Shown: piece after piece, positions 2,561-34,834 of the stretch
Numbering within the stretch: the first letter of the stretch is position 1
How the letters are laid out: every line of letters begins with the position of its first letter
Position numbers and translations under genes: made by a program
From: Chloroflexota bacterium
Lineage (GTDB): Bacteria > Chloroflexota > Limnocylindria > P2-11E
Length of the DNA stretch: 58,651 bases
Assembly: GCA_028876375.1 (NCBI GenBank)
Contig: JAGWSB010000003.1
Location: 1-58,651, forward strand
Direction of reading: 5' to 3'
The notes under the pieces: model-generated
The model's database searches: none
Told to the model about the DNA's origin: nothing
What the model saw: the letters and a program-made list of their open reading frames with translations, nothing else

Positions 2561-2659
2561 GGCATCACAGACGTACCACTTGTCCCACGTGTGATGCCGA
2601 TCAGTTCGATCGGCATCAGGAGTGGGACGATCGTCCCACGTGTGATGCCACTTTCCTCC
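2561..2659. repeat. Two tandem 38-bp imperfect palindromes (GGCATCA...TGATGCC) with a 13-bp spacer; copy 1 of a dispersed element
   Basis: 2561-2598 and 2612-2649; 17-nt direct repeat GTCCCACGTGTGATGCC at 2582 and 2633; perfect 18-nt palindrome 2622-2639; matches 34772-34823 in reverse complement. Confidence 0.9.
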
Positions 2660-2726
2660 CCTTCGACCGCGACCGCGGTAGGTGGGGAGAGGGGACAGCC
2701 TCACTCGTCGCCTTCCGCCGGGTACA

Positions 2727-3086
2727 TCACCCGTCGATTGCGTCGGCAAGCTGTGCGCGGATACCGCCCGGGCCGACGGTCAACGCCAGGACCGCGATCC
2801 GCCACGGCGAGCCGCGCCGGTGATGCACGCCGAGCCAGTTCTCGGCGAGCCGACCGAGACGTACGACCTTGCGCGGCCCGGCCGCCTCGATGGCCGAGAC
2901 GAAGGACGTCGCGCGCCTGGTCTTGACCTCGACAAAGACGAATCCGCTGCCGTCGTGGCACACGAGGTCGATCTCCCCGAACCGCGTCCGGACGTTCCGG
3001 GCGATGATCCGCCAGCCGCGCTCCGCCAGGGCGCGCTCCGCGAGCTGCTCGCCGTGAACGCCCAGCGCGTGGCGCAAGTCGGGCAC
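2727..3086 (-). CDS. yraN: YraN family (UPF0102) endonuclease-like protein
   Basis: GVHGEQLAERALAERGWRIIARNVRTRFGEIDLV...FVFVEVKTR; usual position between rnhB and comM. Confidence 0.92.
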   Translation of the reverse strand: MPDLRHALGVHGEQLAERALAERGWRIIARNVRTRFGEIDLVCHDGSGFVFVEVKTRRATSFVSAIEAAGPRKVVRLGRLAENWLGVHHRRGSPWRIAVLALTVGPGGIRAQLADAIDG

Positions 3087-3114
3087 GCGGAGACGATCGG
3101 CACGGCCTTGAAGG

Positions 3115-3786
3115 TCAGCCGGCGAGCGTCTCCTTCACCACCTCGTCCATGAGCCCGAGCTCCGTCTGCTCGGCGGCGAGGAGCACTCGGACGGTCCCGA
3201 AGTCCTGCCGATGGAGCGGCGTCAAGCCGCGTTCCTGGAGGGCGGTACGGTGGTCGATCGTGGGGTAGCCGCAGTTGTGCTCCCAGCCATAGCCGGGATA
3301 CCGGAGCGAGAGCTTCGCCATGAGCCGGTCACGCGTCACCTTGGCCACGATCGAGGCGGCGGCGATCGCGAACGAGCGCGCGTCGCCCTTCACGATCTCG
3401 GTGTGCCGACCGGCGGCGAAGGTGGGGTCGACGATGCGACGGCCGTCGACGATCACGTGATCGAACTCGCCGATCTGCCGGAGAGCGCGCCGCATCGCGA
3501 GGTGGCTCGCGTGGTAGATGTTGAGCTGGTGGATCTCGGCCACGGATGCGGCGCCGACGCCCACGCGCACCACGCGGGCGCGGATGACCGGCACGAGCGC
3601 CTCACGCTGCCCGCGGCTGAGGACCTTCGAGTCGCGCACCGCGCGAATGAGCCGACACCCCGGCGTCACGAGCACGGCAGCGGCGACGACGGGGCCCGCG
3701 AGCGCGGCCATGCCGACCTCGTCGACGCCGACGACCCGGGGGAGACCTTGGTCCCAGAAGCGCTTCTCGAAGGCGAGCGACGGCAT
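3115..3786 (-). CDS. rnhB: Ribonuclease HII
   Basis: VVGVDEVGMAALAGPVVAAAV, VRDSKVLS, VKGDARSFAIAAASIVAKVTRD, GYPT..H, HRQDF; ATG at 3786. Confidence 0.93.
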   Translation of the reverse strand: MPSLAFEKRFWDQGLPRVVGVDEVGMAALAGPVVAAAVLVTPGCRLIRAVRDSKVLSRGQREALVPVIRARVVRVGVGAASVAEIHQLNIYHASHLAMRRALRQIGEFDHVIVDGRRIVDPTFAAGRHTEIVKGDARSFAIAAASIVAKVTRDRLMAKLSLRYPGYGWEHNCGYPTIDHRTALQERGLTPLHRQDFGTVRVLLAAEQTELGLMDEVVKETLAG

Positions 3787-3799
3787 TACGCGAGGGAGA

Positions 3800-4165
3800 C
3801 TAGCGGCGCTTCTCCCGAAGGGTGGCGGCTTTTCCGACGCGCTCTCTGAGGAAATAGAGGGCCGCTCGTCTCGCGTGGCCGTGCCGCGTGACCTCGATCT
3901 TCTCGACGCGCGGCGAGTGGAGCATGAACGTTCGCTCGACGCCGACGCCGCTCGCGACACGGCGGACCGTCACCTGCTCGTCCAGCCCGCCGCCGCGCAC
4001 CCGCAGGACGGTGCCCTCGAAGTTCTGCAGCCGCTCCCGGTTGCCCTCGATGACGCGCACGGAAACGCGGACCGTATCTCCCGGACGGATCTCCGGGAGA
4101 TCGGTCTTCATCTGCTCCTGGGCAAGCTGCTTGAGGGCGTCTTCCATCGTCAATGTCATCGTCAC
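3800..4165 (-). CDS. rplS: 50S ribosomal protein L19
   Basis: [31 protein letters not shown]...[26 protein letters not shown]. Confidence 0.97.
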
Positions 4166-4188
4166 GGGGCCGGTCGATCATATCAGAT

Positions 4189-5184
4189 CTAGGGCGTGGA
4201 CCTCCGCAGCCGGTCGATGATCGTCACGTGGGAGACGCCGAAGTGCTTCGCCAGCTCCCGGATCGTCATGCCGGTCTTGCGCATCCGGTGTACGTCGGCG
4301 GCTGTCGGAGCGCGCTGCGCGCCCCGGGCGGGGCGCATCCGAACGCCGGCGTCGCGCAGGCGCGCGCGGACGGTGGCGGGCGACATCCCGAATCGCGCGG
4401 CGATGCGATAGGACCCTATCCCGGACCGATAGGCCCGGATGAGCTCGTCGTCGCCGACGCGGGCGCGCGGCGTCACGGCCCGCGGCAGGCGGGCTCGCTC
4501 CTCCGGCGTCAGGTCGGCCGATGCGAGCAGGTCCGGTCGGCGCTCCGCCGTCCGCCTGATCGACTCGGATCGTCGCCACTCCGCGATCGCCTTGTGGTCG
4601 CCGGACAGCAGCACCGGGGGCACGCGGCTTCCCTCGTGCTCGACCGGCCGTGTGTACTGCGGACCCTCGAGCAGGCCGCCGGTGTGCGACTCCTGCTCGA
4701 GCGACGCCGCCTCGATGACCCCGGGCACGAGGCGCACCACGGCGTCGACGACCACCATCGACGGCAGCTCGCCGCCGGTGAGCACGTAATCGCCGATCGA
4801 CAGCTCTTCGTCGACGTCGCGCTCGACGACGCGCTCGTCGACGCCTTCGTAGTGCCCCGCGACGAGGACGAGGTGCGTGAGCGCGGCGAGCCGCCGGGCC
4901 GTCGGCTCGTCGAAGCGTCGCCCCTGCGCCGAGAGGAGGACGACGTGGCCGTCGCCGCCGCGGACCGAGCGGATCGCGCGGCTCAGCGGCTCCGGCCGCA
5001 TCACCATCCCCGGCCCGCCGCCGTAGGGGGTGTCATCGACCGTCCGATGCCGGTCGGTCGCCCAGTCGCGGATGTCGTGTACGTGGACGTCGACGAGCGC
5101 CGCGTCCTGCGCGCGCTTCAGGATGCTCTCCCCGAAGGGCCCCTCGAACATCCGCGGGAACAGGGTGAGCACGTCGACGCGCAT
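4189..5184 (-). CDS. trmD: tRNA (guanine-N1)-methyltransferase TrmD with C-terminal tandem HTH extension
   Basis: [60 protein letters not shown]; about 90 extra residues with two HTH-like repeats; TGATG overlap with rimM. Confidence 0.95.
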
Positions 5185-5690
5185 CACGCCTCCTCCTGCG
5201 GCGCGAGAACGATGCGTCCGGCGGCGAGGTCCACCTCGCGGACCACGGACTCGAGCATCGGGAAGAGCATCTCTCGCTCGCCGTCGCTCACGACCAGCAC
5301 GTCGGCGCCGCCGGCCCGCAGGATCTCGCGCACCTCTCCGAGGCGCTCTCCGCGAACGGTCAACGCCTCGAGGCCGATGAGGTCGTCCCACAGGTACTCG
5401 CCTTCGCGCCGGACCGCCGCGCGCGCCACGCGCAGCGCACGGTCGCGCAGCCTCTCCGCCGCGTCGCGGTCGACGATGCCCTCGAACGCGACGATCGGCG
5501 CGTCGTCCGTCCCGCGCACGGAGGCGACGCGGAGCGTCCCCTGATCGGTCCGAAGGACGGAGCCGACGCGAAAGCGCTCGGCGACGCGGTCGGTCATGGG
5601 CTCGACGCGTACTTCGCCACGGACGCCGTGCGGCGCGCGCACGACGCCGACGACGATCTCAGTCGATCTCGAGGTCGACCTTCGCGCCAT
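5184..5690 (-). CDS. rimM: 16S rRNA processing protein RimM
   Basis: [18 protein letters not shown]...[12 protein letters not shown]...GGADVLVV...[13 protein letters not shown]. Confidence 0.94.
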
Positions 5691-5901
5691 CGCGCGTCGC
5701 CACCACCTTCAGCAGCGCCCGGACGGCCTTCGCCATCCGGCCCCCGCGGCCGATGACCTTGCCGACGTCCGGCTCGCCGACGCCCAGGTGGAGCTTCAGG
5801 ATGTCGTGGTCCGTCGTCTCGGTGACGACCACGGCGCTGGGGTCCTCGACCAGCTGTCGAGCGATGTGCTCGAGGACCTTTCCCTCGCGCGTCTCGGTCA
5901 T
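5659..5901 (-). CDS. khpA: KH-domain RNA-binding protein KhpA
   Basis: LVEDPSAVVV...DVGKVIGRGGRMAKAVRALL; conserved rpsP-khpA-rimM order. Confidence 0.92.
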   Translation of the reverse strand: MTETREGKVLEHIARQLVEDPSAVVVTETTDHDILKLHLGVGEPDVGKVIGRGGRMAKAVRALLKVVATRDGAKVDLEID

Positions 5902-6167
5902 CGGATGACCGGCGGGACCTCGGCGTCGGGGATGCCGGCCTTCACGAGAAGATCACGCGCGGTCTCGGTCGGCTTGGCGCCGGTCTTGAACCAATGCTTC
6001 GCGCGGTCGAGGTCGACGACCAGCTCGACGGGCTCGCGGCGCGGGTCGTAGTGGCCGAGCGTCTCGATGAAGCGGCCATTGCGGGGCGCGCGGGAGTCGG
6101 CCACGACCAGCCGATACGTCGGCTGCTTCGTCTTCCCTTGGCGGCGCAGGCGGATATGTACGGACAC
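5898..6167 (-). CDS. rpsP: 30S ribosomal protein S16
   Basis: GTG at 6167 after SD GGAGG: VHIRLRRQGKTKQPTYRLVVADSRAPRNGRFIETLGHYDP. Confidence 0.96.
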   Translation of the reverse strand: MSVHIRLRRQGKTKQPTYRLVVADSRAPRNGRFIETLGHYDPRREPVELVVDLDRAKHWFKTGAKPTETARDLLVKAGIPDAEVPPVIR

Positions 6168-6169
6168 AG

Positions 6170-7474
6170 CTACCTCCGGAGAGGTAAATGGTACGGCAGG
6201 CGCCCACCCTTGGCCATTCCGCCCAGCTGCTTCATCAGCTTCTTCATCTCCTCGAACTGCCGGAGGAGCTGATTGACGTCGGCGACCGTCGTCCCGGAGC
6301 CGCGGGCGATCCGCTTCCGCCGGGAGCCGTTGATGGTCGACGGATCGGCGCGCTCGCCGCGGGTCATCGACGAGATGATCGCCTCGACCTTCTTCAGCTC
6401 CTTCTCCGCCTCGGGGCCGCTGGGCATCTGCTTCGCCAGCTGCCCCATCCCGGGGATCATCTTGATCAGGTCGCCGATCGACCCCATCTTCTTGAGCTGC
6501 TGGAGCTGCTTGTAGAAGTCGTCGAGCGTGAAGCGCGCCTCGAAGAGCTTCTTCGCCTGCTCCTCGGCCTCCTTCTGGTCGACGACCTCTTGCGCCTTCT
6601 CGACGAGCGTCACGACGTCGCCCATGCCGAGGATCCGCTGCGCGAGCCGGTCGGGGTGGAAGACCTCGATCGCGTCGAGCTTCTCGCCCGTCCCCAGGAG
6701 CTTGACCGGTATCCCGGTCGCGGCGCGGATCGACAGCGAAGCGCCGCCGCGCGCGTCGCTGTCGACCTTCGCGAGCACGAGGCCGGTGATGGGCAGGCGC
6801 GCGTGGAACGCGGTCGCCGCGTCGACGGCGTCTTGTCCGGCCATCGCGTCGACGACCAGAAGGATCTCGTCCGGTTGCGTCGCGGCGACGATGGACTCGA
6901 CCTCGGACATCATCGCCTCGTCGATGTGGAGGCGGCCGGCCGTGTCGACGATGACGGTGTCCCCGCCCTCCAGCGGTACGTTCTTCGGATCCGCGCGCCG
7001 AACGGGTACGCCGAGCTGCTTCCCCAGCGCCTCGAGTTGATCCATCGCCGCCGGGCGGTGGATGTCCACGGTGACGAGCACCGGCTTCCGCCCCTGCTTG
7101 CGAAGGAGATTCGCGATCTTCGCCGAGCTCGTCGTCTTGCCGGACCCCTGCAGTCCGACCATGACGATGACGGTCGGCGGCGTCGCGGCGCGCGCCAGCG
7201 GCGAGGCCTCTGTGCCGAGCATCTCGACGAGGGCATCGTGCACGATCTTCACGACCTGCTGCGCGCCGGTGACGCTCTGGATCACCTGCTGGCCGATCGC
7301 CCGCTCGCGCACCGTCGCGACGAGCTGCTTGACCACCTTGAAGCTCACGTCGGCCTCGAGCAGCGCGACGCGCACGTCGCGCAGTGCCGCCTCGAGGTCG
7401 GCCTCCGTCACTCGCGGGCGTCCCTGCAGCGTCGCGAACGTCGCGGTCAGACGATCTTGGAGCTGCTCGAACAT
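6170..7474 (-). CDS. ffh: Signal recognition particle protein Ffh
   Basis: ALLEADVS, GLQGSGKTT, DTAGRL, DSDARGG, ILGMGDVVTLVEKA, M-domain SRRKRIARGSG. Confidence 0.97.
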   Translation of the reverse strand: MFEQLQDRLTATFATLQGRPRVTEADLEAALRDVRVALLEADVSFKVVKQLVATVRERAIGQQVIQSVTGAQQVVKIVHDALVEMLGTEASPLARAATPPTVIVMVGLQGSGKTTSSAKIANLLRKQGRKPVLVTVDIHRPAAMDQLEALGKQLGVPVRRADPKNVPLEGGDTVIVDTAGRLHIDEAMMSEVESIVAATQPDEILLVVDAMAGQDAVDAATAFHARLPITGLVLAKVDSDARGGASLSIRAATGIPVKLLGTGEKLDAIEVFHPDRLAQRILGMGDVVTLVEKAQEVVDQKEAEEQAKKLFEARFTLDDFYKQLQQLKKMGSIGDLIKMIPGMGQLAKQMPSGPEAEKELKKVEAIISSMTRGERADPSTINGSRRKRIARGSGTTVADVNQLLRQFEEMKKLMKQLGGMAKGGRLPYHLPLRR

Positions 7475-8376
7475 CAGGGACGCCCGAGCATAGCCGCGAC
7501 GTACGCGCGCGCATCCATCGGGACGAGGTCCTCCGCCTTCTCTCCCACGCCCAGCCAGCGGACGGGCAGCCCCAGATCGTTCGCGATGGCGAAGATCGCG
7601 CCTCCCTTCGCGGTGCCGTCGAGCTTCGTGACGACGAGGCCCGTCACCTTCGCCGCCTTGGTGAACTCGCGCGCCTGCACGATCGCGTTCTGTCCCTGCG
7701 TTCCGTCGAGGACGAGAAGCACCTCGTCCGGCGCGCCCTCACGCGCGCGGCCGGCGACGCGGACGACCTTCTCGAGCTCGTCCATGAGATGACCCTTGGT
7801 GTGCAGCCGGCCCGCCGTGTCGGCGATGACGACGCTGTTCCCGCGCGACCGCGCGGCCTGGATCGCGTCGAACACGACCGCGGCCGGATCGCCGCCGGGC
7901 CGGCCGCTGACGATCGGCAGCCCCGTCCGTCCCGCCCAGCTCTCGAGCTGCTCGATCGCCGCGGCGCGGAAGGTGTCCGCCGCCGCCAGGAGGGGCGTCG
8001 CGCCCTCGTCGCGCATGCGCTTCCCGAGCTTCGCCGCGGTCGTCGTCTTGCCGCTCCCGTTGACGCCGACGACGAGGATCACCCGCGGCGTGCCGCCCGC
8101 CGCCGGCGGCGCCGGCGGGATGACCGCGACGAGCGCGTCGCGCACGGCGTCGAGCACCTTGGGGACCGTCGTCGCCCGTCCCTCGGCCACGACGTCGCGC
8201 ACCTGCAGCATCACCGGGTCGACGAGCGACACGGACAGATCCGCTCGGAGGAGCGCCTCCTCGAGGCGATCGAGCCACTCGTCGCTGACGGGCTCCTCCT
8301 CCGGCTTACGGAACGCGCCGAAGAGCCGGGAGATGAGGCCGCCTCTCGTCTTTTCGAGGCCCTGCTCGATGCTCAT
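7474..8376 (-). CDS. ftsY: SRP receptor FtsY
   Basis: GVNGSGKTTT, AADTFRAAAIEQL, DTAGRLHT, TKLDGTAKGG, GVGEKAEDL. Confidence 0.96.
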   Translation of the reverse strand: MSIEQGLEKTRGGLISRLFGAFRKPEEEPVSDEWLDRLEEALLRADLSVSLVDPVMLQVRDVVAEGRATTVPKVLDAVRDALVAVIPPAPPAAGGTPRVILVVGVNGSGKTTTAAKLGKRMRDEGATPLLAAADTFRAAAIEQLESWAGRTGLPIVSGRPGGDPAAVVFDAIQAARSRGNSVVIADTAGRLHTKGHLMDELEKVVRVAGRAREGAPDEVLLVLDGTQGQNAIVQAREFTKAAKVTGLVVTKLDGTAKGGAIFAIANDLGLPVRWLGVGEKAEDLVPMDARAYVAAMLGRP

Positions 8377-11805: not shown

Positions 11806-11821
11806 GTCCTCCGCTGCATGC

Positions 11822-11850: not shown

Positions 11851-11879
11851 CCCTATTCGCTTGTGACGCTGCGCCCAGT

Positions 11880-14642: not shown

Positions 14643-15179
14643 TTAGTCTTTCACATCCTTCAGCTTCTCGAGCGCGGCCCAGCGCGCGTCGGGCGCCGGC
14701 TCGTGGTCGTGGGGACGCTCGTTGAGGTCCTCCCCGCAGACGGGGCAGAGGCCCCTGCAGCCCGGGCGGCAGAGCGGCGCCTGCGGCGTCGCGAGGATGA
14801 CCTCCTCGCGGATGAGCGGCGTGAGGTCGATGAGGAAGTCCGAGCCGATGGTCTTCGCGTCGCGCGGAGCTGAGGGCATCGGCGCGCCCGTCTCGACGCG
14901 CTCCGTCGCGTAGTACTGCTCCGCGAAGCGCGCGGCGACGGGAGAGTGGATCGGCCGCAGGCAGCGCACGCACTGCTGCGCGACCTCCGCGCGGACGCCG
15001 CCCTCGAGGTACGCGCCGGGGTCCGTGTGCGTCGCCTTGATGTCCGCGTCGAACGCCGTGATGTCGGCGTCGAGGAGCCCCGCGTTGTCACCGCGCGGAT
15101 CGACCGGCGACTCCTGCACGTGCAGATCCATGTGGTCGCCGACCGACTGCTTCAGCAAGGGCGCGACGCTGACCTTCAC
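14643..15179 (-). CDS. yceD: DUF177/YceD family protein
   Basis: CVRCLRP, IDLTPLIREEVIL, LCRPGCRGLCPVCGEDLN, DARWAALEKL; upstream of rpmF. Confidence 0.9.
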   Translation of the reverse strand: MKVSVAPLLKQSVGDHMDLHVQESPVDPRGDNAGLLDADITAFDADIKATHTDPGAYLEGGVRAEVAQQCVRCLRPIHSPVAARFAEQYYATERVETGAPMPSAPRDAKTIGSDFLIDLTPLIREEVILATPQAPLCRPGCRGLCPVCGEDLNERPHDHEPAPDARWAALEKLKDVKD

Positions 15180-15182
15180 CGG

Positions 15183-15647
15183 TCACGCCTCCGCCGGCGC
15201 GGCCTTTCGCTCCTCCAGTACCTCGAGGCTCTTCCGCACGACCCCGAGCGTCTTCTCGAGATCGCCCTGGAGACGAAGGAGGACGTCGGACGCGTACTGG
15301 TCCGCTCCACGCATCGTCTCCTCCGCGCGCTGCTCCGCGCGCCCGGCGATGTCCTCGGCGCGCTTCTCGGCCTCCGCCAAGATGGCTTGATCCTGCAGGA
15401 GGAGTGCCGCCTGCTCCTGACCCGCGGCGATGATCCGCTCGGCCTCCTCGCGCGCATGGCCGAGCACGCGGTCGGTCTCCTGGATCGTGCGCCGTGCCTG
15501 GCGCACCTCTTCCGGGATGGCGACGCGGAGCTGGTCGATGAGGTCGAGGAGCGCGGCCTGCTCGAGGATCACCTGATCCGTCATCGGGACCTTGCGAGCG
15601 TGTACGACGAGGGATTCGAGCCGCTCCACCAGGAACTGCATGTCCAC
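15183..15647 (-). CDS. Coiled-coil protein (ATPase subunit b / DivIVA-like family usually next to rsmD-coaD)
   Basis: LVERLESLVVHARKVPMTDQVILEQAALLDLIDQLRVAIPEEVRQA...GADQYASDVL. Confidence 0.8.
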   Translation of the reverse strand: MDMQFLVERLESLVVHARKVPMTDQVILEQAALLDLIDQLRVAIPEEVRQARRTIQETDRVLGHAREEAERIIAAGQEQAALLLQDQAILAEAEKRAEDIAGRAEQRAEETMRGADQYASDVLLRLQGDLEKTLGVVRKSLEVLEERKAAPAEA

Positions 15648-25558: not shown

Positions 25559-26529
25559 TCGACCTCCGCGAACGGCTCCGCCGTCACACGCGGCTCGCCG
25601 AGCGATGCGAGGTAGCGGGAGAGGTCCGGCGCGAGCGGCGCGGTGAAGGTCCGCTCGCCCGCGTGAGGCAGACGCACGGTCAGCCGCCAGGCGTGGAGGA
25701 ACTGCCTGCCGAGCTCGCTCCTGTCGCCGCGCCGTCCGTACACGGGGTCGCCCACGATAGGCGTTCTCGCGAACGCGAGGTGCGCGCGGATCTGGTGCGT
25801 GCGCCCGGTGAGCGGCTGGGCGAGGAGGAGCGCCTGCCGCGAGGCACCGTCGCCGTACGCCGCGATGCGCCGGAAGCGCGTGACGGCGTCCCGCCCGACC
25901 GCGCGCACGACCATGCGCCGGCGATCGCTCGCGTCGCGCGTGACCGGCGCCTCGACCACGGCGGGCTCCGCGCCGGGATCGCCCCACACGAGCGCGAGGT
26001 ACTCCTTGCGCACCGTGCGCCCCTGCAGCTGCCGCGCGAGCGCGAGCTGCGCGACGTCGTTCTTCGCGACGATCATGACCCCGCTGGTGTCCTTGTCGAG
26101 GCGGTGGACGATGCCCGGCCGCGCGGCGGTGCGACCCGTCTCCGCCGCGATCCGCCCGACGAGCGCGTTCACGAGCGTGCCGCTCGAGTGGCCGAACGCG
26201 GGGTGCACGACGAGGCCGGCGGGCTTGTTGACGACGATCACGTCCTGGTCCTCGTAGAGGACGTCGACGGGGATGTCCTCGGCCTCGAGCGAGAGCGGCG
26301 GCGCCTCCGCGGGGACGTCGACGACGATCTCGTCGCCACGGTGAACGCGATGGCCGGCCTCGACCGCGCGCCCGCCGATGCGCACGTGTCCGTCCTTCGC
26401 GAGGCGCGCGATCGCGCTCCGCGAGAGCTGACTGTGCTCGGCGACGTAGCGGTCGACGCGCATCGCGGCCGCATCGGCCGCGCGCAGGACTAGGTGCTTG
26501 ACCTCGTCGCCCGTCTCTCCTCCATCCAC
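25555..26529 (-). CDS. rluD: RluA/RluD-family pseudouridine synthase with S4 domain
   Basis: RVDRYV, VVNKPAGLVVHP, GIVHRLDKDTSG, TGRTHQIR, GDPVYG; start 26529 or 26463. Confidence 0.9.
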   Translation of the reverse strand: MDGGETGDEVKHLVLRAADAAAMRVDRYVAEHSQLSRSAIARLAKDGHVRIGGRAVEAGHRVHRGDEIVVDVPAEAPPLSLEAEDIPVDVLYEDQDVIVVNKPAGLVVHPAFGHSSGTLVNALVGRIAAETGRTAARPGIVHRLDKDTSGVMIVAKNDVAQLALARQLQGRTVRKEYLALVWGDPGAEPAVVEAPVTRDASDRRRMVVRAVGRDAVTRFRRIAAYGDGASRQALLLAQPLTGRTHQIRAHLAFARTPIVGDPVYGRRGDRSELGRQFLHAWRLTVRLPHAGERTFTAPLAPDLSRYLASLGEPRVTAEPFAEVE

Positions 26530-26981
26530 AGCAGGAACGTGACGATGATGATCCCGACGACGATCGACGAGTCGGCGACGTTGAACGCCCAGAAGCGCCA
26601 GCCGTCGGGGATGCCGACGTCGACGAAGTCGGTCACGTAGCCCTGCCCGACGCGGTCGACGAGGTTCCCCGCCGCGCCGCCGAGCTGCATCCCGAGGGTG
26701 AAGGCGATGGGCGCCGAGCGCGCCGCCAGGTCGCGGTAGTAGTAGAGGATGACGAGCACCGCGACGACGGACAGGAGCGAGAGGAGCGACGTTCGCTCCG
26801 GCAGCAGTCCGAAGGCCGCGCCCGTGTTGCGCACGTTCGCGACGCGCGCCCATCCGTCGGCCACTTCGCGCGCCTCGCCCAGCGGGATGTTCGCGACCAC
26901 CCAGCTCTTGGTGAAGCGATCGAGGCCGAACGTCACGACGGCCAGCGCCCCGATGAGGACGACGCGGCGCGGAGGGAGCAC
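26490..26981 (-). CDS. lspA: Lipoprotein signal peptidase II
   Basis: DRFTK, NTGAAFG, GGAAGNLVDR, VTDF, AFNVADSSI. Confidence 0.94.
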   Translation of the reverse strand: MLPPRRVVLIGALAVVTFGLDRFTKSWVVANIPLGEAREVADGWARVANVRNTGAAFGLLPERTSLLSLLSVVAVLVILYYYRDLAARSAPIAFTLGMQLGGAAGNLVDRVGQGYVTDFVDVGIPDGWRFWAFNVADSSIVVGIIIVTFLLWMEERRATRSST

Positions 26982-27017
26982 GGCGGCGATGGTAGAGGGG
27001 CGACGGAGGCGAGGTAC

Positions 27018-27770
27018 TCAGGCGGTGACCATGCCTCCGTCGATGACGAGCACCTGTCCGGTGATGTAGCTCGCCTCGTCCGACGCGAGGAAGGCGATCG
27101 CGTTGGCCACGTCCTCGACCGTGCCGAACCGCCCGAGCGGGATCTGCGGCAGGATCGTGTCCTTCATCTTGTCCAGCAGCTCGTTGGTGAGATCGGTCGG
27201 GACGAACCCGGGCGCGACGGCGTTGCACGTCACGTTGCGGCTCGCCATCTCGCGCGCGACGGTCTTGGTGAAGCCGATGAGCCCGGCCTTCGCCGCCGCG
27301 TAGTTCGCCTGGCCCGCGTTGCCCGCGACGCCGGCGACGGACGATACGTTCACGATCCGCCCGTAGCGCTGCTTCATCATCGGCCGCATCGCCGCGCGCG
27401 TGACGAGGAACGCGCCGCGCAGGTCGAGGTCGAGGACCGCGTCCCACGCCTCGGAGGTCATCCGGACGAGCAGGTCGTCGCGCGTGATGCCGGCGTTGTT
27501 GACGAGGATGTCGATGCGTCCGCCGCCGAAGGCGAGAGCCTCCTTCACCACGCGGGCGACGTCGGCCTCGACGGAGACGTCGCCCTGGACGATCGCCGCG
27601 CTCCCGCCGGCCTTCTCGACCAGCGTCTTCGCCTCCTCCGCCGCGGCGGCGTTGCCCCTGTAGTTGATGGCGACCTTCGCGCCGCCGGAGGCGAGCCGCA
27701 GCGCCGTCGCGCGGCCGATACCGCGGGCTCCGCCGGTGACGAGCGCGACCTTGCCGTCGAAGGAGGCCAC
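27018..27770 (-). CDS. fabG: 3-oxoacyl-ACP reductase FabG
   Basis: ALVTGGARGIG, LVNNAGITRD, GQANYAAAKAG, NAVAPGFV. Confidence 0.95.
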   Translation of the reverse strand: MASFDGKVALVTGGARGIGRATALRLASGGAKVAINYRGNAAAAEEAKTLVEKAGGSAAIVQGDVSVEADVARVVKEALAFGGGRIDILVNNAGITRDDLLVRMTSEAWDAVLDLDLRGAFLVTRAAMRPMMKQRYGRIVNVSSVAGVAGNAGQANYAAAKAGLIGFTKTVAREMASRNVTCNAVAPGFVPTDLTNELLDKMKDTILPQIPLGRFGTVEDVANAIAFLASDEASYITGQVLVIDGGMVTA

Positions 27771-27790
27771 GGCGCCGAGCCTAGCGGCGC

Positions 27791-29023
27791 CTACGCCGCG
27801 GTGAGGATGAGCGACGCGTTGTGGCCTCCGAACCCCATCGAGTTCGAAAGGGCCGTCTTCACCTTCGTCGCGCGCGCGGTGTTGGGGACGTAGTCGAGGT
27901 CGAGCTCCGGGTCGGGCGTCGTGTAGTTGATCGTCGGCGGCACGCATCCCGTCCCGATGGCCATCACCGACGCGATCGCCTCGAGCGCCCCCGCGGCGCC
28001 GAGGAGGTGGCCGGTCATCGACTTCGTCGACGAGATCATGAGCTTGCGGGCGTGATCGCCGAAGACCTGCTTGATGGCCGCCGTCTCCTCGCGGTCGTTC
28101 GGCTGCGTCGAGGTGCCGTGCGCGTTGATGTAGTCGACGGCGCTCGGCTCGATCCTCGCCTCCGTGAGCGCCATCTTCATCGCGCGCGCGTTGCCCTCGC
28201 CCTCGGGCGACGGCGAGGTGATGTGATACGCGTCGGCCGTCGCGCCGTAGCCGATGATCTCGGCGTAGATCCGCGCGCCGCGCGCGAGAGCGTGGTCGCG
28301 GTCCTCGAGGACGAGCGCCGCGGACCCCTCGCTGAGGACGAACCCGTCGCGGTCCTTGTCGAACGGGCGCGACGCGCGCGCGGGGTCGTCGTTCCGGCGG
28401 CTCATCGCGTGCATGTTCGAGAAGGCGCCGATGGCGAGCGGGATGACCGCCGCCTCCGCGCCGCCGGCGACCATGACCTCCGCCATGCCGCGCTTGATCA
28501 TCTCCGCGCTCTCGCCGAGCGCGTGCGCGCTCGAGGCGCACGCCGACACGTGGGTGAGGTTCGGCCCGCGCAGCCCGAACTGCATCGAGACCTGCGCCGA
28601 TGCGGCGTTGGCCATGAGCATGGGCACGAGGAACGGCGACAGCCGCCCCGGCCCGCGCTTCTCCATGACCAGGACCTGCTCGATGAGGGTCTCGAGGCCG
28701 CCGACGCCGGTCGCGATCGCGACCCCGATGCGCTCGCGCTCCTTCGCGATGTCGAGCTTGGCGTCCTCGATCGCCTGCTTCGCCGATCCGGTCGCGAGCT
28801 GCGTGAAGCGATCCGTCCGCCGCACGTCCTTGCGGTCCATCGCGACGAGCGGGTCGTAGTCCTTCACCTCGCCGGCGATCTGCGTCTCGTACGGCGCGGG
28901 GTCGAACCGCGTGATGCGGCCGATGCCGCTGCGCCCGGAGCTGAGCCCGTCCCACGTGGAGGCGAGGTCGTTGCCCAGCGGGGTGACGCATCCCATGCCG
29001 GTGATGACGACGCGGCGCGTCAC
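27791..29023 (-). CDS. fabF: 3-oxoacyl-ACP synthase II FabF
   Basis: RRVVITGMG, SACASS, YINAHGTST, SSTKSMTGHLLGAAG, NSMGFGGHN. Confidence 0.96.
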   Translation of the reverse strand: MTRRVVITGMGCVTPLGNDLASTWDGLSSGRSGIGRITRFDPAPYETQIAGEVKDYDPLVAMDRKDVRRTDRFTQLATGSAKQAIEDAKLDIAKERERIGVAIATGVGGLETLIEQVLVMEKRGPGRLSPFLVPMLMANAASAQVSMQFGLRGPNLTHVSACASSAHALGESAEMIKRGMAEVMVAGGAEAAVIPLAIGAFSNMHAMSRRNDDPARASRPFDKDRDGFVLSEGSAALVLEDRDHALARGARIYAEIIGYGATADAYHITSPSPEGEGNARAMKMALTEARIEPSAVDYINAHGTSTQPNDREETAAIKQVFGDHARKLMISSTKSMTGHLLGAAGALEAIASVMAIGTGCVPPTINYTTPDPELDLDYVPNTARATKVKTALSNSMGFGGHNASLILTAA

Positions 29024-30024
29024 TACGAGGCTCCTCTCAGCTTGGCGACGAGGTCCGCGATCGACGGCGGGTCGGAAACGGCGAGCGTGCGCGCGTCGAC
29101 GATGCGCTTCACCAGGCCGCTCACGACCTGCCCCGCGCCGATCTCGACGAACGTCGACGCCCCGCCTTCGCGCATGAACTTCACCGAGCGCAGCCATTCG
29201 ACCCGCTGCGCGAGGTGACGTACGAGCGCGTCCGGGATGGTCTCCGCGCTCGCGTGCGGCAGGCCGTTGATGTTCGCGACGACCGGGACGACCGGCTCGC
29301 GGAAGCGGAGGCCGTCCATGAACTGGCGCAGCTCGCCGCCGATGCGGCCCATCGGCGGGAAGTGGAAGGGCCCGCTGATGCGCAGCGGGACGATCCTCTT
29401 CGCGCCTCGCCGCCGCAGCGCCTCCATGACGCCCTCGACGCTGTCGGCGTCGCCCGCGATCGTCACCTGCGCCGGACCGTTGTCGTTCGCGACGACCGTG
29501 CGTCCGTCGGGCGCGACCTCGCGGATGACCTCCTCGACCTCCGTCGCGGACAGGCCGACGATCGCGGCCATCGCCCCCCTGGCGCCCTTCGTCGCGGCGA
29601 GCCGCCCGCGCTCCGCGACGAGGCGAAGCGCGTCCGCGAACGTGAGCACGCCCGCGGCCACGAGCGCGGTGAACTCCCCGAGCGAATGGCCGGCGACGAA
29701 CGACGGCCGGAGGTCGGCCGGCAGCGCGGCGACGCCGCGCGGGTCGAGGCCCTCGGTGATGCGGCGCCCGAGCGCCGCCGTGCGCTCCGCGAGCGCTTCG
29801 AGGACGGCGACGCTCGTCGTGAGGATCGCCGGCTGCGCGGTGGCGGTGTCGTCGAGCCGCTCGGCGGGTCCCGCGAAGCACACCTCCGACAGCGGGTAGC
29901 CGAGGACGTCGTTCGCCTCTTCGAAGGTGCGCCGCGCGTTGGGCGAGGACTCGTACACGGCGCGGCCCATGCCGACCTTCTGCGAGCCCTGCCCGGGGAA
30001 CACGAACGCGAGCGGCTGCGTCAC
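29023..30024 (-). CDS. fabD: Malonyl-CoA:ACP transacylase FabD
   Basis: AFVFPGQGSQ, QPAIL, AGHSLGEF, SGPFH, FVEIGAG; about 15-aa insert before GHSLG. Confidence 0.94.
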   Translation of the reverse strand: MTQPLAFVFPGQGSQKVGMGRAVYESSPNARRTFEEANDVLGYPLSEVCFAGPAERLDDTATAQPAILTTSVAVLEALAERTAALGRRITEGLDPRGVAALPADLRPSFVAGHSLGEFTALVAAGVLTFADALRLVAERGRLAATKGARGAMAAIVGLSATEVEEVIREVAPDGRTVVANDNGPAQVTIAGDADSVEGVMEALRRRGAKRIVPLRISGPFHFPPMGRIGGELRQFMDGLRFREPVVPVVANINGLPHASAETIPDALVRHLAQRVEWLRSVKFMREGGASTFVEIGAGQVVSGLVKRIVDARTLAVSDPPSIADLVAKLRGAS

Positions 30025-30060
30025 GGAAGACCGAGCGTAGCATCGGCGAGCGAGCTGGCG

Positions 30061-30077
30061 CTGCACAGGCTGTGCAG
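30061..30077. promoter_or_regulatory. Perfect palindrome CTGCACAG-G-CTGTGCAG, candidate TetR operator between fabD and tetR
   Basis: 8-bp arms in the 66-bp divergent intergenic region. Confidence 0.6.
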
Positions 30078-30090
30078 TGAAAATAGACGC

Positions 30091-30684
30091 GTGCGCACCT
30101 ACGTCCAGCGTCTCCGCGCCGAGCGCGCCGACCGCACCGCCGCGGCGATCGAACGCGCCGCGCTGCGCGAGCTGCGCCTGCGCGGATACGCCGCGCTCCG
30201 TCTCGCGGACGTCGCGCGTCGCGCGGGCGTCGCGCTGCGCACCGTGTATCTCCATTCGCGGACGAAGGACGTGCTCGTCACCGCGGCGCTGCGCCATCGC
30301 GCCGCGTCGCTGGCCCGCCGCGTCGAGCGCTGGCGGCCCCCGGAGGCGTCGGGCGCGGCGATCCTCGACGACATCGTCGCGCTGCACGAGCGGACGTACC
30401 GCGCCGAGCGGCAGCTCCTCGAGATCCTCGTCGGCGGCGGCGCGCCGCGCGGCCCCGAGGTCCTGCGGTCGCTCGACCGCGTGCGTCTCGGGCTCATCGA
30501 GCGCGCCGTCGCGTCGCTGGCGCGGCTCGACGCGCTACGCGTGCGCCCGGAAGACGCCATCGCGCTCGCGCACGCGATGCTCGCCTACCCCACCTGGCGC
30601 TCCGCGCTCATCGGCCCGGCCCATCGCCGCGCGCCGCGGCTCATCGCCGAGGCGCTGCGGACGTCGCTGCTCGTCGAGCCTTAG
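30091..30684 (+). CDS. TetR/AcrR family transcriptional regulator
   Basis: RTAAAIERAALREL...GYAALRLADVARRAGVALRTVYLH; divergent from the fab operon. Confidence 0.88.
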   Translation: MRTYVQRLRAERADRTAAAIERAALRELRLRGYAALRLADVARRAGVALRTVYLHSRTKDVLVTAALRHRAASLARRVERWRPPEASGAAILDDIVALHERTYRAERQLLEILVGGGAPRGPEVLRSLDRVRLGLIERAVASLARLDALRVRPEDAIALAHAMLAYPTWRSALIGPAHRRAPRLIAEALRTSLLVEP

Positions 30685-31121
30685 TCGAAGCGCCACCGCC
30701 ACGCGACGCGGGCGACGATCGCCGCGACGATGGCCGCGGCGAGGGGGACGCTGCGGTCGGCGACGACCCCGACGCCGACGCTGCCGACGAGGAAGGCGCT
30801 CACGCCGACGTACAGCGTGATCACCGCGGCGAGGAGCCAGACGGTGACGTACGAGCGGCGGATCCGCGAGAGCCGCTCGCGCGGATCGAGCAGGAACGGC
30901 GCGATGACGAGCAGGTGGGTGAGCCAGACGGGGACCGCGACGAGCAGGAGCACGATCGCGACCCACAGCGTCGCGCTCACCTCGGCCTCCGTGGGCACGC
31001 TGAGGCCGAGCCCGACCGCCTGCGCCATCCGGCTGAGGACCGCCGTGCTGGCGACCGCCACCGCGAGGCCGCAGAGCGTGAGGACGGTGTAGAGGTAGCA
31101 CCGCCGGTAGGCGCCGCCCAC
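30681..31121 (-). CDS. Four-TM membrane protein (DUF5671-like)
   Basis: YRRCYLYTVLTLCGL and a second RRSYVTVWL repeat; four hydrophobic segments. Confidence 0.6.
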   Translation of the reverse strand: MGGAYRRCYLYTVLTLCGLAVAVASTAVLSRMAQAVGLGLSVPTEAEVSATLWVAIVLLLVAVPVWLTHLLVIAPFLLDPRERLSRIRRSYVTVWLLAAVITLYVGVSAFLVGSVGVGVVADRSVPLAAAIVAAIVARVAWRWRFD

Positions 31122-31171
31122 GCTCCGACCCTACGTCGCCGTTCGGACGCTCCGCACCTGTCGTCCGGCCT

Positions 31172-34100
31172 CTAGGACGCCTTCTCGATCTCCAGCTCGG
31201 TCGCGACGCCGTTCAGGTCGCCGCTCCAGCGGTGGCCCTTCCCGCTCACGCCCGGCGTGAGCGCCGTCGCGAGCGTCTCGCTCGCGAGCAGGTCGCGGTG
31301 GCGCTCCAGCACGCTCGCGATGGCCCCGCCGTAGCGCAGGGTGATGCGGTCGCTGATCTCGAGACCGGCCTCCTTGCGCATCTCGTTGACGCGGCGGACG
31401 AGCTCGCGCGCGAGCCCTTCGGCCTCGAGCTCGGGCGTGATGCGCGTGTCGAGGGCGACGACGAGGCCGGAGTCGCGCCCGACGGCGTGGCCCGGCGCGC
31501 CCTCGTGCGACACGAGCACTTCGCTCGCGGCGAGCGTGTGCCCCTCGACGACGTACGAGCCGTCGCGCCGCTCGTAGCGCCCTTCGGCGAGAGCGGCGCG
31601 CACTTTCGGCAGCTCCTTGCCGAGCTTGGGCCCGAGAGCCTTCAGCTCCGGCTTCACGATCTCCTTCACCAGGCCGGCGGCGTCGTCGCGCACCTCGAAG
31701 GCCTTGACGTTGAGCTCGTCGCGGACGATCTCGGCGAGCTCGTCGCGGCCGTCGAGGAGGCCGCGCTCGTGGTCCGTCGGGTCGAACACGGCGACGAGGC
31801 GCGCCAGCGGCATGCGCGTCTTCACGCTCGCCGACTGTCGCGCGGCATGTCCGAGCGTGACGACGCGGCGCACGGCGTCCATGCGGCGCTCGAGCTCGTC
31901 GTCGATGAGGGTGACGTCAGCCTCCGGGTACGCGGTGTGGTGAACGGAGGCCTCGGCGTCCGGGACGACGCGCCGGACCAGCCGCTGGTAGAGCGCCTCG
32001 GCGAAGAACGGCATGGCCGGGGCGACGAGGCGCGCGCTCGTGACCAGCGCTTCGTAGAGGGTCTGCTCCGCGGCGAGGGTGCTCTTCGTGTCGCGCGTGC
32101 CCCAGAAGCGCGGGCGGCTGCGGCGCACGTACCACTGCGAGAGGTCCTCGATGAACGCCTCGACGCGCAGCGTGAGCGTACGGACGTCCCACTCCTCGAG
32201 CGCCGCGCGCCCGTCGCGCACGAGCCGGTGGAGCAGCGAGAGGAGCCAGCGGTCCATCAGCGGCCGCTGCTCGACCGGGATGGGCGCCGCCGCGGGATCG
32301 AAGCCGTTGAGCTCGGCGTACGTCGCGAAGAACGAGTACGTGTTCCAGAGCACGAGCAGGCGGCGCTTGATGTCGTCGAGCGCCTTGAGGCTGAAGAGCA
32401 TCGTCTCGTCCGCGCGCTGGCGGCTGACCGTCCAGCGGATGGCGTCGGCGCCGACCTTCTCCATGACCTCCTCGAGGAGGACGACGTTCTCGCCGGTCTT
32501 GTGGAACTCGCCGCCGGACTCGTCGAGCATCGGCTCGAAGGTCTGCACGACGTCGTACGGCGCTCCGCCGGTCAACGCGACGCTGAAGAAGAGCTGCGAG
32601 TAGAACCACAGGCGGACCTGCTCGACCATCTCGACGACGTAGTCGGCCGGGAACCACTTCGTCCACTCCGGGCTGCCCTGCTGGTACCCGAGCGTGGAGA
32701 ACGGCACGACGCCGGCATCGAGCCAGCAGTCGCCGACCTCCTTCACGCGCGTGCTGTCGGCGCCGCACTGCGGGCAGCCGACGACGACGTTGTCGATCCA
32801 GGGCCGGTGCAGCTCGCGCAGCTGCTCGAGGCCGCTCTTGGCGAGCTTCCGCAGCTCGGCCTCGCTGCCGACCACGAAGAAGTGGCCGTTCGCGCAGGTG
32901 TAGAAGGGCAGCGGCAGGCCCCAGTAGCGCTTGCGGCTGATGTTCCAGTCGCTCATGTTCTCGAGCCAGTTCCGCATCCGCCGTCCGGCGTGCTCCGGCA
33001 CCCAGCGGACCGTCTCCGCCGCCGCGATCATCCGCGGTCGCAGCTCGGCCATCGAGATGAACCACTCGTCGTCGACCCGGAAGACGAGCTCCTCGTGGCA
33101 GCGCCAGCACTCCGGGTAGCGGTGCGTGTACGGCGCCGCGCGGAAGAGCAGACCGCGCCGCTTCAGGTCGTCCGCGATCTCGTGCGCGACGTCGCGCGCG
33201 TCCTTCCCCTCGAGCCAGCCGTAGCCCGAGCGGAAGCGCGCCATGTCGTCGATGGGCACCAGGACGGGGAGGTCGAACTCCTTCGACAGCCCGAAGTCCT
33301 CTTCGCCGCAGCCGGGGGCGATGTGGACGATGCCCGTCCCTTCCTCCTCGCCGACCTCGTTCCAGGGGACGACGACGTGCTTGGGCGCCGACCCCTCTGT
33401 CGCCGGGAGCTCTCCGTCGAACGGCCCGCGGAAGCGCAGCCCCACGAGGTCGCGCCCCTTGACCGTCTGGAGGACGTGGGCCCCTTCCCACTTCGTCGTC
33501 GCGTACACCTTCGCGCCGAGGACGAGCGTCTCCGTCGCGCCTCCCGGCCGCTCGTCGGTGATGCGCACGCGGACGTAGTCGAGGTCGGGGTGCACCGCGA
33601 GGGCGACGTTCGCCGGGAGCGTCCAGGGCGTCGTCGTCCACACCAGGAACGACTCCTTCTCGCGCCCCGCGATGGGGAACCGGACGTAGACGCTCGTGTG
33701 CGTCATCTCGCGGTAGCCGAGCGCGAGCTCGTGCTGCGAGATCGCGGTGCCGCACCGGGCGCACCAGGGCATCGAGCGGTGCCCCTTGTAGAGCCAGCCC
33801 TTCTCCTGGCAGAGCTTCAGCGTCTGCCAGATGTGGCTGATGTTGTCGTCGGTGTACGTGAAGTAGGAGTGGTCCCAGTCCATCCACTGGCCCAGACGCG
33901 CCGACTGGCGCGTGAAGGCCGCCGCGGAGCGATCGACCCGCGCGCGGCAGGCCTCGCTGAAGCGGTCGATGCCGTAGCGCTCGATCTCGCGCTTGTTGGC
34001 GAGCCGCAGGTCGCGCTCGACCCCGACCTCGACCCACAGGCCGTGAGTGTCGAAGCCGTTCTGGTAGCGCTGCTCGAAGCCCTCCATGGCCTTGAAGCGC

Positions 34101-34333
34101 TGGAAGACGTCCTTGTACGTCCGCGCCCAGGCGTGGTGGATGCCCATCGCCTCGGCGTTCGCGGTGATCGGTCCGTCGATGAACGAGAAGCGCGGGTGCC
34201 CGGCGTTCTTCTTCCGCAGCGTGTCGAAGCTCTTCTCGCGCCCCCACATCTCGAGCACCTCGTGCTCGAGCTCCGGCAGGTCGAACGTCGACCCCGCCGC
34301 CTCGAAGCGCGTCTTCTTTCCCGTCGCGGCCAT
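31172..34333 (-). CDS. ileS: Isoleucine-tRNA ligase, type 2
   Basis: FSFIDGPITAN, GFDTHGL, WTTTPWTLPANVAL, GTGIVHIAPGCGEED, DWNISRKRYWG, no C-terminal Zn finger; Ile-specifier T-box upstream. Confidence 0.96.
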   Translation of the reverse strand: MAATGKKTRFEAAGSTFDLPELEHEVLEMWGREKSFDTLRKKNAGHPRFSFIDGPITANAEAMGIHHAWARTYKDVFQRFKAMEGFEQRYQNGFDTHGLWVEVGVERDLRLANKREIERYGIDRFSEACRARVDRSAAAFTRQSARLGQWMDWDHSYFTYTDDNISHIWQTLKLCQEKGWLYKGHRSMPWCARCGTAISQHELALGYREMTHTSVYVRFPIAGREKESFLVWTTTPWTLPANVALAVHPDLDYVRVRITDERPGGATETLVLGAKVYATTKWEGAHVLQTVKGRDLVGLRFRGPFDGELPATEGSAPKHVVVPWNEVGEEEGTGIVHIAPGCGEEDFGLSKEFDLPVLVPIDDMARFRSGYGWLEGKDARDVAHEIADDLKRRGLLFRAAPYTHRYPECWRCHEELVFRVDDEWFISMAELRPRMIAAAETVRWVPEHAGRRMRNWLENMSDWNISRKRYWGLPLPFYTCANGHFFVVGSEAELRKLAKSGLEQLRELHRPWIDNVVVGCPQCGADSTRVKEVGDCWLDAGVVPFSTLGYQQGSPEWTKWFPADYVVEMVEQVRLWFYSQLFFSVALTGGAPYDVVQTFEPMLDESGGEFHKTGENVVLLEEVMEKVGADAIRWTVSRQRADETMLFSLKALDDIKRRLLVLWNTYSFFATYAELNGFDPAAAPIPVEQRPLMDRWLLSLLHRLVRDGRAALEEWDVRTLTLRVEAFIEDLSQWYVRRSRPRFWGTRDTKSTLAAEQTLYEALVTSARLVAPAMPFFAEALYQRLVRRVVPDAEASVHHTAYPEADVTLIDDELERRMDAVRRVVTLGHAARQSASVKTRMPLARLVAVFDPTDHERGLLDGRDELAEIVRDELNVKAFEVRDDAAGLVKEIVKPELKALGPKLGKELPKVRAALAEGRYERRDGSYVVEGHTLAASEVLVSHEGAPGHAVGRDSGLVVALDTRITPELEAEGLARELVRRVNEMRKEAGLEISDRITLRYGGAIASVLERHRDLLASETLATALTPGVSGKGHRWSGDLNGVATELEIEKAS

Positions 34334-34347
34334 CGCCTGCTCCTCCA

Positions 34348-34378
34348 AATACAAAAGCCGTCCCGCTCACGGGACGGC
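34348..34378 (-). terminator. T-box attenuator terminator
   Basis: GCCGTCCC-GTGAGC-GGGACGGC-TTTTGTATTT, followed by SD GGAGG. Confidence 0.8.
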
Positions 34379-34550
34379 TCTCACCGCGGTACCACCCGAG
34401 TTGGCGACATACGTCGCCCTCTCCTTCCGGCGCCGATCAACGCCTGCTGTTCTCTAACGGAGTGCCTCTCCGTCCGCGTCTACTGGCGCAGCCGGCCCCG
34501 GGCTGCGTTTTTCTTGCGGCGGCATCGGGGTGGATAGCCCCTCGAACGCC
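34348..34550 (-). ncRNA. T-box riboswitch (Ile, AUC specifier) with ultrashort Stem I
   Basis: Minus strand GGCGTT-CGA-GGGG-CTATCCA-CCCC-GATGCC (ATC at 34535-34533); Stem II with AAGAA and AGTA; ACGGAG-AGGCA-CTCCGTTA; T-box GGGTGGTACCGCGG at 34397-34384; -10 TACACT at 34566-34561. Confidence 0.9.
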
Positions 34551-34771
34551 TTTGTCGAAAAGTGTACGGGCTGCCCGAGACTGCACGTCCGCGCCCCGGG
34601 ATCACAGCCCAATGGGGCTCCCCGAGGAGCGTGAGGGGTAGGACGACTTTGAGGAAGGCGAGGGGGGAACCCCCTCCTCAGGCGCCTCGTCGGCCGCGGG
34701 ACACGAAAGACGACCTAGAAGACGTGGATCTACGAGCCGTCAGCGGAGGTCGGGGTCATCGCAAAGGGCAT

Positions 34772-34834
34772 GGAGGAAAGTGGCATCACAGACGGGACGA
34801 TCGTCCCGTTCCTGATGCCGATCTGAACAGTCGG
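34772..34834 (+). repeat. Copy 2 of the GGCATCA...TGATGCC palindromic element
   Basis: 47/52 identity to reverse complement of 2608-2659; perfect 18-nt palindrome 34792-34809. Confidence 0.9.

Follow-up and report, generated by a model that had tools for sequence, protein, structure and literature searches.

The palindromic element that recurs in the intergenic regions of a Chloroflexota genome, and is present at two sites in the window analyzed here (58,651 nucleotides, contig JAGWSB010000003.1 of assembly GCA_028876375.1, denoted C100 below), is probably the cognate DNA-binding-site array of a winged-helix protein, OrfX, as predicted from comparative sequence analysis, and whole arrays appear to have been copied to other intergenic sites. 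One of the two copies in the window lies directly upstream of the orfX gene (1775-2470, minus strand). Most likely, the system is a pairing of a protein with a dispersed repeat in uncultured soil Chloroflexota, rather than a new RNA or a transposon end. We infer from the patterns described below that OrfX binds the array and regulates its own gene, and likewise what the dispersed copies do and how they were made.

Structure of the element and its four loci

The reverse complement of positions 2608-2659 (site 1) and the segment 34772-34823 (site 2) are identical in 47 of the 52 positions, and both fold with a 7-bp outer stem, GGCATCA/TGATGCC, a 3x3 mismatch and a perfect 18-nt palindrome centered on GATC. 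The pattern GGCATCA-N5-GGGACGATCGTCCC-N5-TGATGCC has exactly 2 matches in the window and none in 100 shuffled versions, and four of the five differences between the sites form two compensatory pairs (GT..AC vs AC..GT), so that these observations of the first-pass annotation are confirmed. Its description of a single palindrome in two copies stands insofar as both sites are real, but site 1 consists of two tandem units and site 2 is half an element, and the family extends beyond the window. When the whole assembly (2.6 Mb in 134 contigs, 71.5% GC) was searched with a profile (nhmmer), exactly four loci with 7 units were detected, namely three full copies (site 1 and those on contigs C32 and C29) and the half copy at site 2; a weak match at C114:6715 was dismissed as a chance hit inside a coding sequence (8.9 bits).

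The full element is a near-palindrome of ~110 nt that consists of two tandem 51-nt units, with the outer half-sites GGCATCA/TGATGCC and the inner palindrome GGGAC-N4-GTCCC, in the layout GGAGGAAAGT-[GGCATCA-N24-TGATGCC]-GATCGAACNGATC-[GGCATCA-N24-TGATGCC]-ACTTTCCGCA. It is bounded by 15-nt terminal inverted repeats (GGAAAGTGGCATCAC) and is predicted to fold into a single long hairpin (free energy of -67 kcal/mol, z = -5.5). Site 1, the full two-unit 'master' copy (about 2550-2661, minus strand), was delimited by flank reading, the assembly search and the predicted fold; it reads GGAGGAAAGT-[unit a]-GATCGAACTGATC-[unit b]-GTTCCCCGCA, and two other assemblies of this organism contain the identical sequence. 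Unit a (2612-2649, minus strand), GGCATCA-CAC-GTGGGAC-GATC-GTCCCAC-TCC-TGATGCC, falls inside the segment 2608-2659 that was originally noticed, and unit b (2561-2598, minus strand) has the same outer half-sites and a decayed inner palindrome (GGGAC-AAGT-GGTAC). The two units are joined by a central 27-bp palindrome, TGATGCC-GATC-N5-GATC-GGCATCA (2592-2618, not assigned to a strand), in which the half-site centers are 20 bp apart. Site 2 (34765-34835, plus strand) comprises one unit (34782-34819) and a decayed remnant of the central palindrome, and the other full copies are located at C32:~7705-7818 and C29:~15122-15240. The tetranucleotide GATC itself, an enrichment of which would have hinted at a methylation switch, is already very common in this genome, with one occurrence per 117 bp and an observed/expected ratio of 0.97 under the Markov expectation.

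The four copies have common spacers and flanks, with 88-91% identity over 70-94 nt, unlike what would be expected of sites evolving in place, so that the three copies other than site 1 appear to be DNA-level duplicates. At each of the loci on C100, C32 and C29, the variable letters in the left arm of one unit (CACGT, CAGGT or CAGAT) recur in that of the other, and the right arms that complement them exactly are located in other loci, which suggests concerted evolution or conversion and exchange between copies. Each of the four copies is located in an intergenic region and begins 30-65 nt past a stop codon. A small open reading frame (ORF) that is present in the element (GGAGGAAAGTG followed by 11 codons to TGA, encoding MASQxGRSSxS) was rejected as a by-product because both its GTG and its TGA are parts of the conserved arms, the C32 copy lacks a Shine-Dalgarno-like motif and the copies occur in both directions relative to their neighbors.

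Both further copies and covariation were found. When the orthologous units from the nearest relative (G004) and two metagenome-assembled genomes (MAGs) are included, 86.6% of the cells pair and 10 of the 17 pairs change on both sides, a level that was reached in none of 500 shuffles; the view of the element as non-coding, dispersed and symmetry-preserving is supported. This covariation alone cannot discriminate between a duplex and a hairpin because the same pattern would be expected if the two half-sites were read by a homodimer. Across the seven units of this genome, none of the 14 outer columns varies, compared to 15 of the 24 inner ones (p = 1e-4), and in the paired half-sites of a related genome (G003), the variable Y/R position assorts independently (16 matched and 13 mismatched pairs, p = 0.71). 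The half-sites follow each other in steps of 10-11 bp in the simple arrays of relatives, with A/T-rich spacers, and in steps of 11, 9, 11 and 20 bp in this genome, where the unit is 51 bp. The invariance of the outer arms, the independence in G003 and the steps of about a helical turn favor duplex half-sites read by a protein over a hairpin, and the proposal that structure rather than sequence is preserved is not borne out by the fixed outer half-sites and the G003 base that varies free of covariation.

Arrays linked to orfX and their spread among relatives

In relatives of this bacterium, orfX belongs to the conserved gene order trmD-rplS-rnhB-yraN-(gap)-orfX-comM-dprA, and its stop codon usually overlaps the comM start, which implies that orfX is the first gene of a single orfX-comM-dprA operon. 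All genomes of the same genus that encode orfX contain, in the yraN-orfX spacer, an alternating array of inverted 6-8-mers, each with a motif of its own: GGCAYC in G003, CGCATC in G006, CCGTGCC in G001 and GAACCG in G005; G002 has neither orfX nor an array. The spacer of the nearest relative, G004, contains two 38-nt hairpins that share the outer GGCATC/GATGCC arms with the element described here and have a different inner palindrome. In other lineages represented by MAGs and metagenomes, the orfX-proximal motifs are TTCATCA, GTTATCA, CGACACC, TGCATC, CGTACC, CGTCATC, CGCACC and GGCARC. Even the homologues from another genus that are 32% identical to OrfX, and are encoded away from yraN and comM, have the array GACTAC-N5-GTAGTC-N4-GACTAC-N5-GTAGTC at the start codon, with a TACAAT-like -10 element within it.

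Altogether, of the ~25 homologue lineages examined, L079 is the only one in which no array is evident upstream of orfX. Simply counting inverted 6-mers failed to distinguish the regions upstream of orfX from controls, and a phased-chain statistic (alternating half-sites in steps of 10-12 bp, with at most one mismatch each) was used instead. Chains of at least 4 half-sites were detected in 16 of the 25 regions upstream of orfX and in 3 of the 184 control windows; of the other 9 regions, 8 contain nested 38-nt units, paired long palindromes or arrays outside the scored window, and the one from L079 has none evident. In three lineages (L037, which represents G019, L081 and L085), 7-12 tandem 11-nt units (GGCCTCCTCCG or GGCGGCTCCTCCG) are found after the yraN stop codon, directly upstream of the array, and the yraN-orfX spacer of G003 contains different tandem repeats as well as masked stretches.

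In genomes with dispersed copies, these mostly have the motif of the array upstream of orfX in the same genome. All genomes compared are fragmented MAGs, that of the organism under study being ~90% complete. Arrays with the CGTGCC motif were found at 15 or more loci in G001 and at none in nine other genomes, whereas GCAYC arrays are confined to genera that possess orfX, with at least 11 loci in G003, 9 of two related types in G019 and 2 in G006; in ~80 genomes of the family that lack a close orfX homologue, only single chance matches to GCAYC, with one mismatch, were observed. The GACTAC arrays only adjoin the homologous gene. The motif of the dispersed arrays exactly matches the orfX-proximal one in four genomes and partially in G019. 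Only this genome contains the nested GGCATCA/GGGAC unit, which is absent from 60 relatives, and exact unit patterns had no match in 185,579 species (two patterns, one genome per species), in the JGI metagenome contigs or in IMG/VR.

The nearest relative retains both the AMP-ligase/ileS gene pair that flanks site 2 and the reductase/LigB pair that flanks the C29 copy, and the element is absent from both orthologous spacers; accordingly, the dispersed copies are lineage-specific gains or losses. The empty site in this relative is too diverged to set the exact ends of the element.

The OrfX protein (231 amino acids), the proposed element-binding partner, combines an N-terminal winged helix with a degenerate minimal-nucleotidyltransferase fold. 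The AlphaFold model is confident (pLDDT of 89), and a Foldseek search recovered structural relatives for the N-terminal winged helix only (Sso10a-2, SmtB, MarR and HlyU, that is, ArsR/MarR-like proteins). A distant homologue has an NTP_transf_2/Pol-beta domain with which the C-terminal alpha/beta half of OrfX aligns; this half has no Pfam family and has lost the catalytic GS/DxD residues. The protein ends with a long helix followed by an acidic tail, NWREELSDEWDEDWDPF (residues 208-224; window ~1799-1849, minus strand), which is invariant in close homologues (36-58% identical) and missing from the ~32%-identical ones; by its sequence, this motif looks like a docking peptide for some partner. 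No nuclease or transposase signature or domain was detected in OrfX. Among the structured parts of the protein, variability is highest in the wing and where the recognition helix begins (residues 41-46), and the helix variants track the half-site classes, with QL[VI] accompanying xxCATC, [QYH]VV accompanying xCACC and SPI accompanying CGTRCC. For this unannotated family, only 44 homologous clusters could be detected among 5.8 billion; they come without exception from MAGs of the Chloroflexi type or from soil and freshwater metagenomes, and orfX was found in 11 of the 201 sampled genomes of the class.

Origin and function of the arrays

If the arrays are binding sites of OrfX, site 1 would be the native, autoregulatory copy that controls orfX as well as comM-dprA in those relatives where the operon is intact. 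The outer GGCATCA/TGATGCC half-sites, and perhaps also the inner GGGAC/GTCCC, would be contacted by dimers of OrfX; these half-sites are spaced at roughly whole helical turns on one face of the duplex. The other three copies, site 2 included, would be whole-array DNA duplicates in other spacers that are bound by the same protein and act as extra operators, as roadblocks or as neutral passengers.

Several observations weigh against this interpretation. The correlation between recognition helices and half-sites is confounded by common ancestry, and G019 contains three GGCATC arrays that are 1-2 letters off its orfX-proximal GCACC type. Many arrays, including the one described here, are palindromic overall, a symmetry that plain operators do not need, and because whole arrays often lie within a larger palindrome, a hairpin or cruciform could also play a role. 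In this genome, the outer half-sites are separated by 31 and 20 bp, in contrast to the 10-11 bp of the simple arrays; a single dimer cannot span a unit, so that oligomerization or use of the inner palindrome has to be assumed. A consensus scan detected no sigma-70-like promoter at site 1, and the C32 copy is located between convergent genes, where there is no promoter that would need an operator. The 25 dispersed copies from four genomes that could be classified, with intergenic classes assigned using a crude ORF filter based on GC content at third codon positions, include 18 between tandem, 4 between divergent and 3 between convergent genes, with no significant bias; given this spread, neither 'operator' nor 'terminator' fits all the duplicates. 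A terminator-like placement, considered after a first count by eye (0 divergent of ~13), was dropped when the larger sample showed no significant bias. Finally, OrfX has no nuclease or transposase domain, and the spread of the copies is therefore left unexplained by OrfX itself.

The arrangement at site 1 resembles the autoregulated repressors of the ArsR/MarR type, in which a small winged helix-turn-helix protein is encoded downstream of inverted half-sites that are about one helical turn apart. Like the operators of these repressors, the inverted half-sites adjoin orfX at a position that is conserved among the homologues (L079 excepted), and in the distant homologues, the array overlaps the TACAAT-like -10 element next to the start codon. 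Unlike these operators, however, the OrfX arrays consist of 4-8 alternating half-sites or, in this genome, of nested 38-bp palindromes, their motif changes between species of the same genus, and they are duplicated as a whole to many unrelated intergenic sites, convergent ones included. Furthermore, OrfX differs from ArsR/MarR-type proteins by its degenerate nucleotidyltransferase fold and invariant acidic tail.

It appears unlikely, although worth serious consideration, that the element is a selfish hairpin similar to repetitive extragenic palindromes (REPs; BIMEs and REPINs when doubled) or to miniature inverted-repeat transposable elements (MITEs), in which the palindrome is copied as single-stranded or cruciform DNA by some enzyme, and either the array upstream of orfX only marks the source copy or OrfX is a maintenance partner comparable to the REP-associated RAYT proteins. 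Such an origin is compatible with the long, near-perfect hairpin of ~110 nt with its terminal inverted repeats, with the location of all four copies shortly after stop codons, one of them between convergent genes, with the range of 1 to at least 15 loci among close relatives, with the differences in the presence of copies between sister species, and with the signs of concerted evolution and exchange among loci. The likeness to the REP/REPIN-RAYT systems (REPtrons) extends to the small size and extragenic location of the palindromes, their frequent doubling to form a long hairpin, the genome-specific sequence, the variable copy number and the 'master' copy beside one conserved partner gene. However, this partner is a winged-helix protein and not a Y1 HUH transposase; a search for Y1/RAYT transposases (PF01797) found none in the entire assembly (of a MAG that is only ~90% complete), while control genomes did produce matches, which also speaks against the earlier suggestion of a single-stranded hairpin for a HUH enzyme or a tyrosine recombinase. 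The REP palindromes of the RAYT type carry a conserved GTAG or CGTC tetranucleotide at the palindrome foot (PMC3733652). No such tag is present in this element, where 14 of the 14 arms read GGCATCA/TGATGCC and CGTC occurs only at the center of the inner palindrome. The number of loci (four in this genome and from 1 to about 15 in relatives) is low compared to the tens to hundreds of REPs, and the OrfX-array half-sites behave as duplex protein sites.

The resemblance to MITEs of the Correia and ERIC types, in turn, lies in the size of ~110 bp, the terminal inverted repeats, the long hairpin, the intergenic location and the presence/absence differences among relatives. A linked TnpA-REP transposase was looked for in the assembly and not found, and no target-site duplication is visible as a direct repeat around any of the three full copies. 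The terminal sequence of the element has no other occurrence in the assembly, no insertion sequence (IS) with matching ends or other candidate parent was identified, self-BLAST of the assembly revealed no multi-copy IS but only overlaps of strain-variant contigs, and BLAST against plasmid and phage records produced no match. Moreover, unlike the interior of a MITE, that of the element consists of phased, repeated half-sites common to the promoter region of one gene family, and an origin as a mobile hairpin leaves unexplained the distant orfX homologues that, in unrelated contexts, have a single start-codon array of the same architecture and no dispersed copies. Of the candidates put forward in the first-pass annotation, 'operator' and 'REP/MITE-like' each capture a part of the evidence, which points to a mix of both.

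A structured RNA, be it a small RNA, a 5' leader or attenuator of orfX, or a 3' hairpin that protects or terminates the transcripts of the upstream genes, is a very improbable explanation. It would account for the strong predicted fold, for the change in two units that is compatible with a G.U pair on the forward strand (GGGAC/GTCTC), for the location of the copies of this genome just past stop codons and for the two alternative hairpin registers that resemble an attenuator. Nevertheless, a scan of the whole window with Rfam 15 produced no gathering-level match, and even at E <= 10, no family was recognized around either site, with noise alone (12-17 bits) around site 1. There is no intrinsic terminator in the region 2350-2800, where the hairpins are followed by ACTTTCC or GATC and not by T runs. 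With respect to the flanking genes, the copies are found in either orientation, the variable stem position in G003 does not covary, the outer arms are fixed in sequence and not merely in their pairing, and the period of the half-sites matches the helical repeat of DNA.

That the two sites are an inverted pair of recombination sites that flips the 32-kb segment between them is extremely unlikely. The window copies are indeed inverted and identical in 47 of 52 positions, but two more copies reside on other contigs, site 1 is itself nearly palindromic, the same arrangement of site 1 is seen in three assemblies, and no recombinase is linked to the element, the nearby serine recombinase being a part of an insertion in comM. 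For much the same reasons, the proposal that the two copies face outward around a core block could not be upheld, given also that the GC skew across the window is monotonic, with no change of sign between sites 1 and 2.

As presumed binding-site arrays of OrfX, the elements also resemble systems with dispersed sites. In Bacillus subtilis, the winged-helix dimer RTP binds an inverted pair of its own Ter sites just upstream of its gene, which it autoregulates, and about ten further sites in intergenic DNA; the Ter sites are polar and the system has a narrow taxonomic range. Tus/Ter, MatP/matS and KorB/OB are further systems with dispersed sites. By analogy, OrfX and its arrays might constitute a species-specific system of chromosomal site marking, a possibility that we regard as quite unlikely. 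Under this scenario, OrfX, the gene of which precedes comM-dprA with their roles in transformation and recombination, would bind a few scattered, self-identifying palindromic arrays that serve as barriers to replication forks or transcription or as marks of self DNA, the protein and its sites would co-diversify fast, and the arrays would spread by copying that does not involve a transposase. The likeness to RTP/Ter consists of the winged-helix protein, the inverted sites upstream of its own gene, the scattered intergenic copies and the narrow taxonomic range. The differences are that the resemblance of OrfX to RTP goes no further than the general fold class, with no similarity in sequence, that the OrfX elements are nearly symmetric, and that there is no switch of GC skew between the copies in the window, which offers no support for a Ter-like function; the chromosomal positions of the copies are unmappable in fragmented MAGs.

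Dispersed palindromic repeats are usually credited to a dedicated transposase (REP/RAYT, MITE/IS) or left unexplained, whereas in this case, the only constant partner is a winged-helix protein, the operator array of which seems to have turned into a dispersed repeat in some species. The motif is re-specified among species of one genus despite the conserved housekeeping neighborhood of the gene. If binding by OrfX is confirmed, these arrays would provide a natural series of orthogonal protein/operator pairs, an example of regulator sites that spread through the copying of DNA and not through point mutation, and a lead on the origin of many palindromic repeat families of Limnocylindria. They also offer a first functional handle on the OrfX family (about 44 cluster representatives).

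Genomic neighborhoods of the copies

Site 1 is located 65 nt after the stop codon of yraN (UPF0102; 2727-3134, minus strand), within the conserved gene order, and ~80 nt upstream of the orfX ATG, and site 2 lies ~36 nt after the stop codon of a gene for a PaaK-like AMP-ligase and ~210 nt upstream of the T-box leader of ileS. The two sites had been placed at boundaries between core and accessory regions; this does not hold because both flanks of site 2 (the AMP-ligase and the T-box-ileS) and those of site 1 (yraN, orfX and comM) are syntenic in relatives. The C32 copy follows a gene for an ADP-forming acetyl-CoA synthetase, with a convergent short-chain dehydrogenase gene on the other side, and the C29 copy follows a gene for a ferric-reductase-like membrane protein and precedes a LigB-type dioxygenase gene by ~130 nt. 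A short tandem duplication (two copies of CCTCCTTCGAAGCTCGT, C32:7861-7898) lies between the C32 element and the dehydrogenase stop codon. The ileS T-box (34367-34555, minus strand), which is outside the element, scores 49 bits (E = 1e-9), below the Rfam gathering score of 93; it is strongly conserved in the sister genome G004, and the remaining spacer is not.

Downstream of orfX, after a gap of 56 nt, comM (Mg-chelatase-like; 720-1718, minus strand) is truncated to 332 amino acids; in the region 1-1718 (minus strand), it is followed by a gene for a large serine recombinase with Resolvase and Recombinase domains. This combination implies that an integrative element is inserted in comM, and this insertion begins ~1.7 kb from site 1. 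A short contig from the sequencing run SRR32006840 contains the same orfX followed by a gene that begins at the orfX stop codon, similar to the start of comM in relatives; no more than 38 amino acids of its product are encoded on the contig, with no family on record. Contig ends of the assembly often overlap other contigs at 86-94% identity (e.g., C111:45977-52027 vs C112:1-6051), so that the MAG seems to contain co-assembled strain variants despite the low reported contamination.

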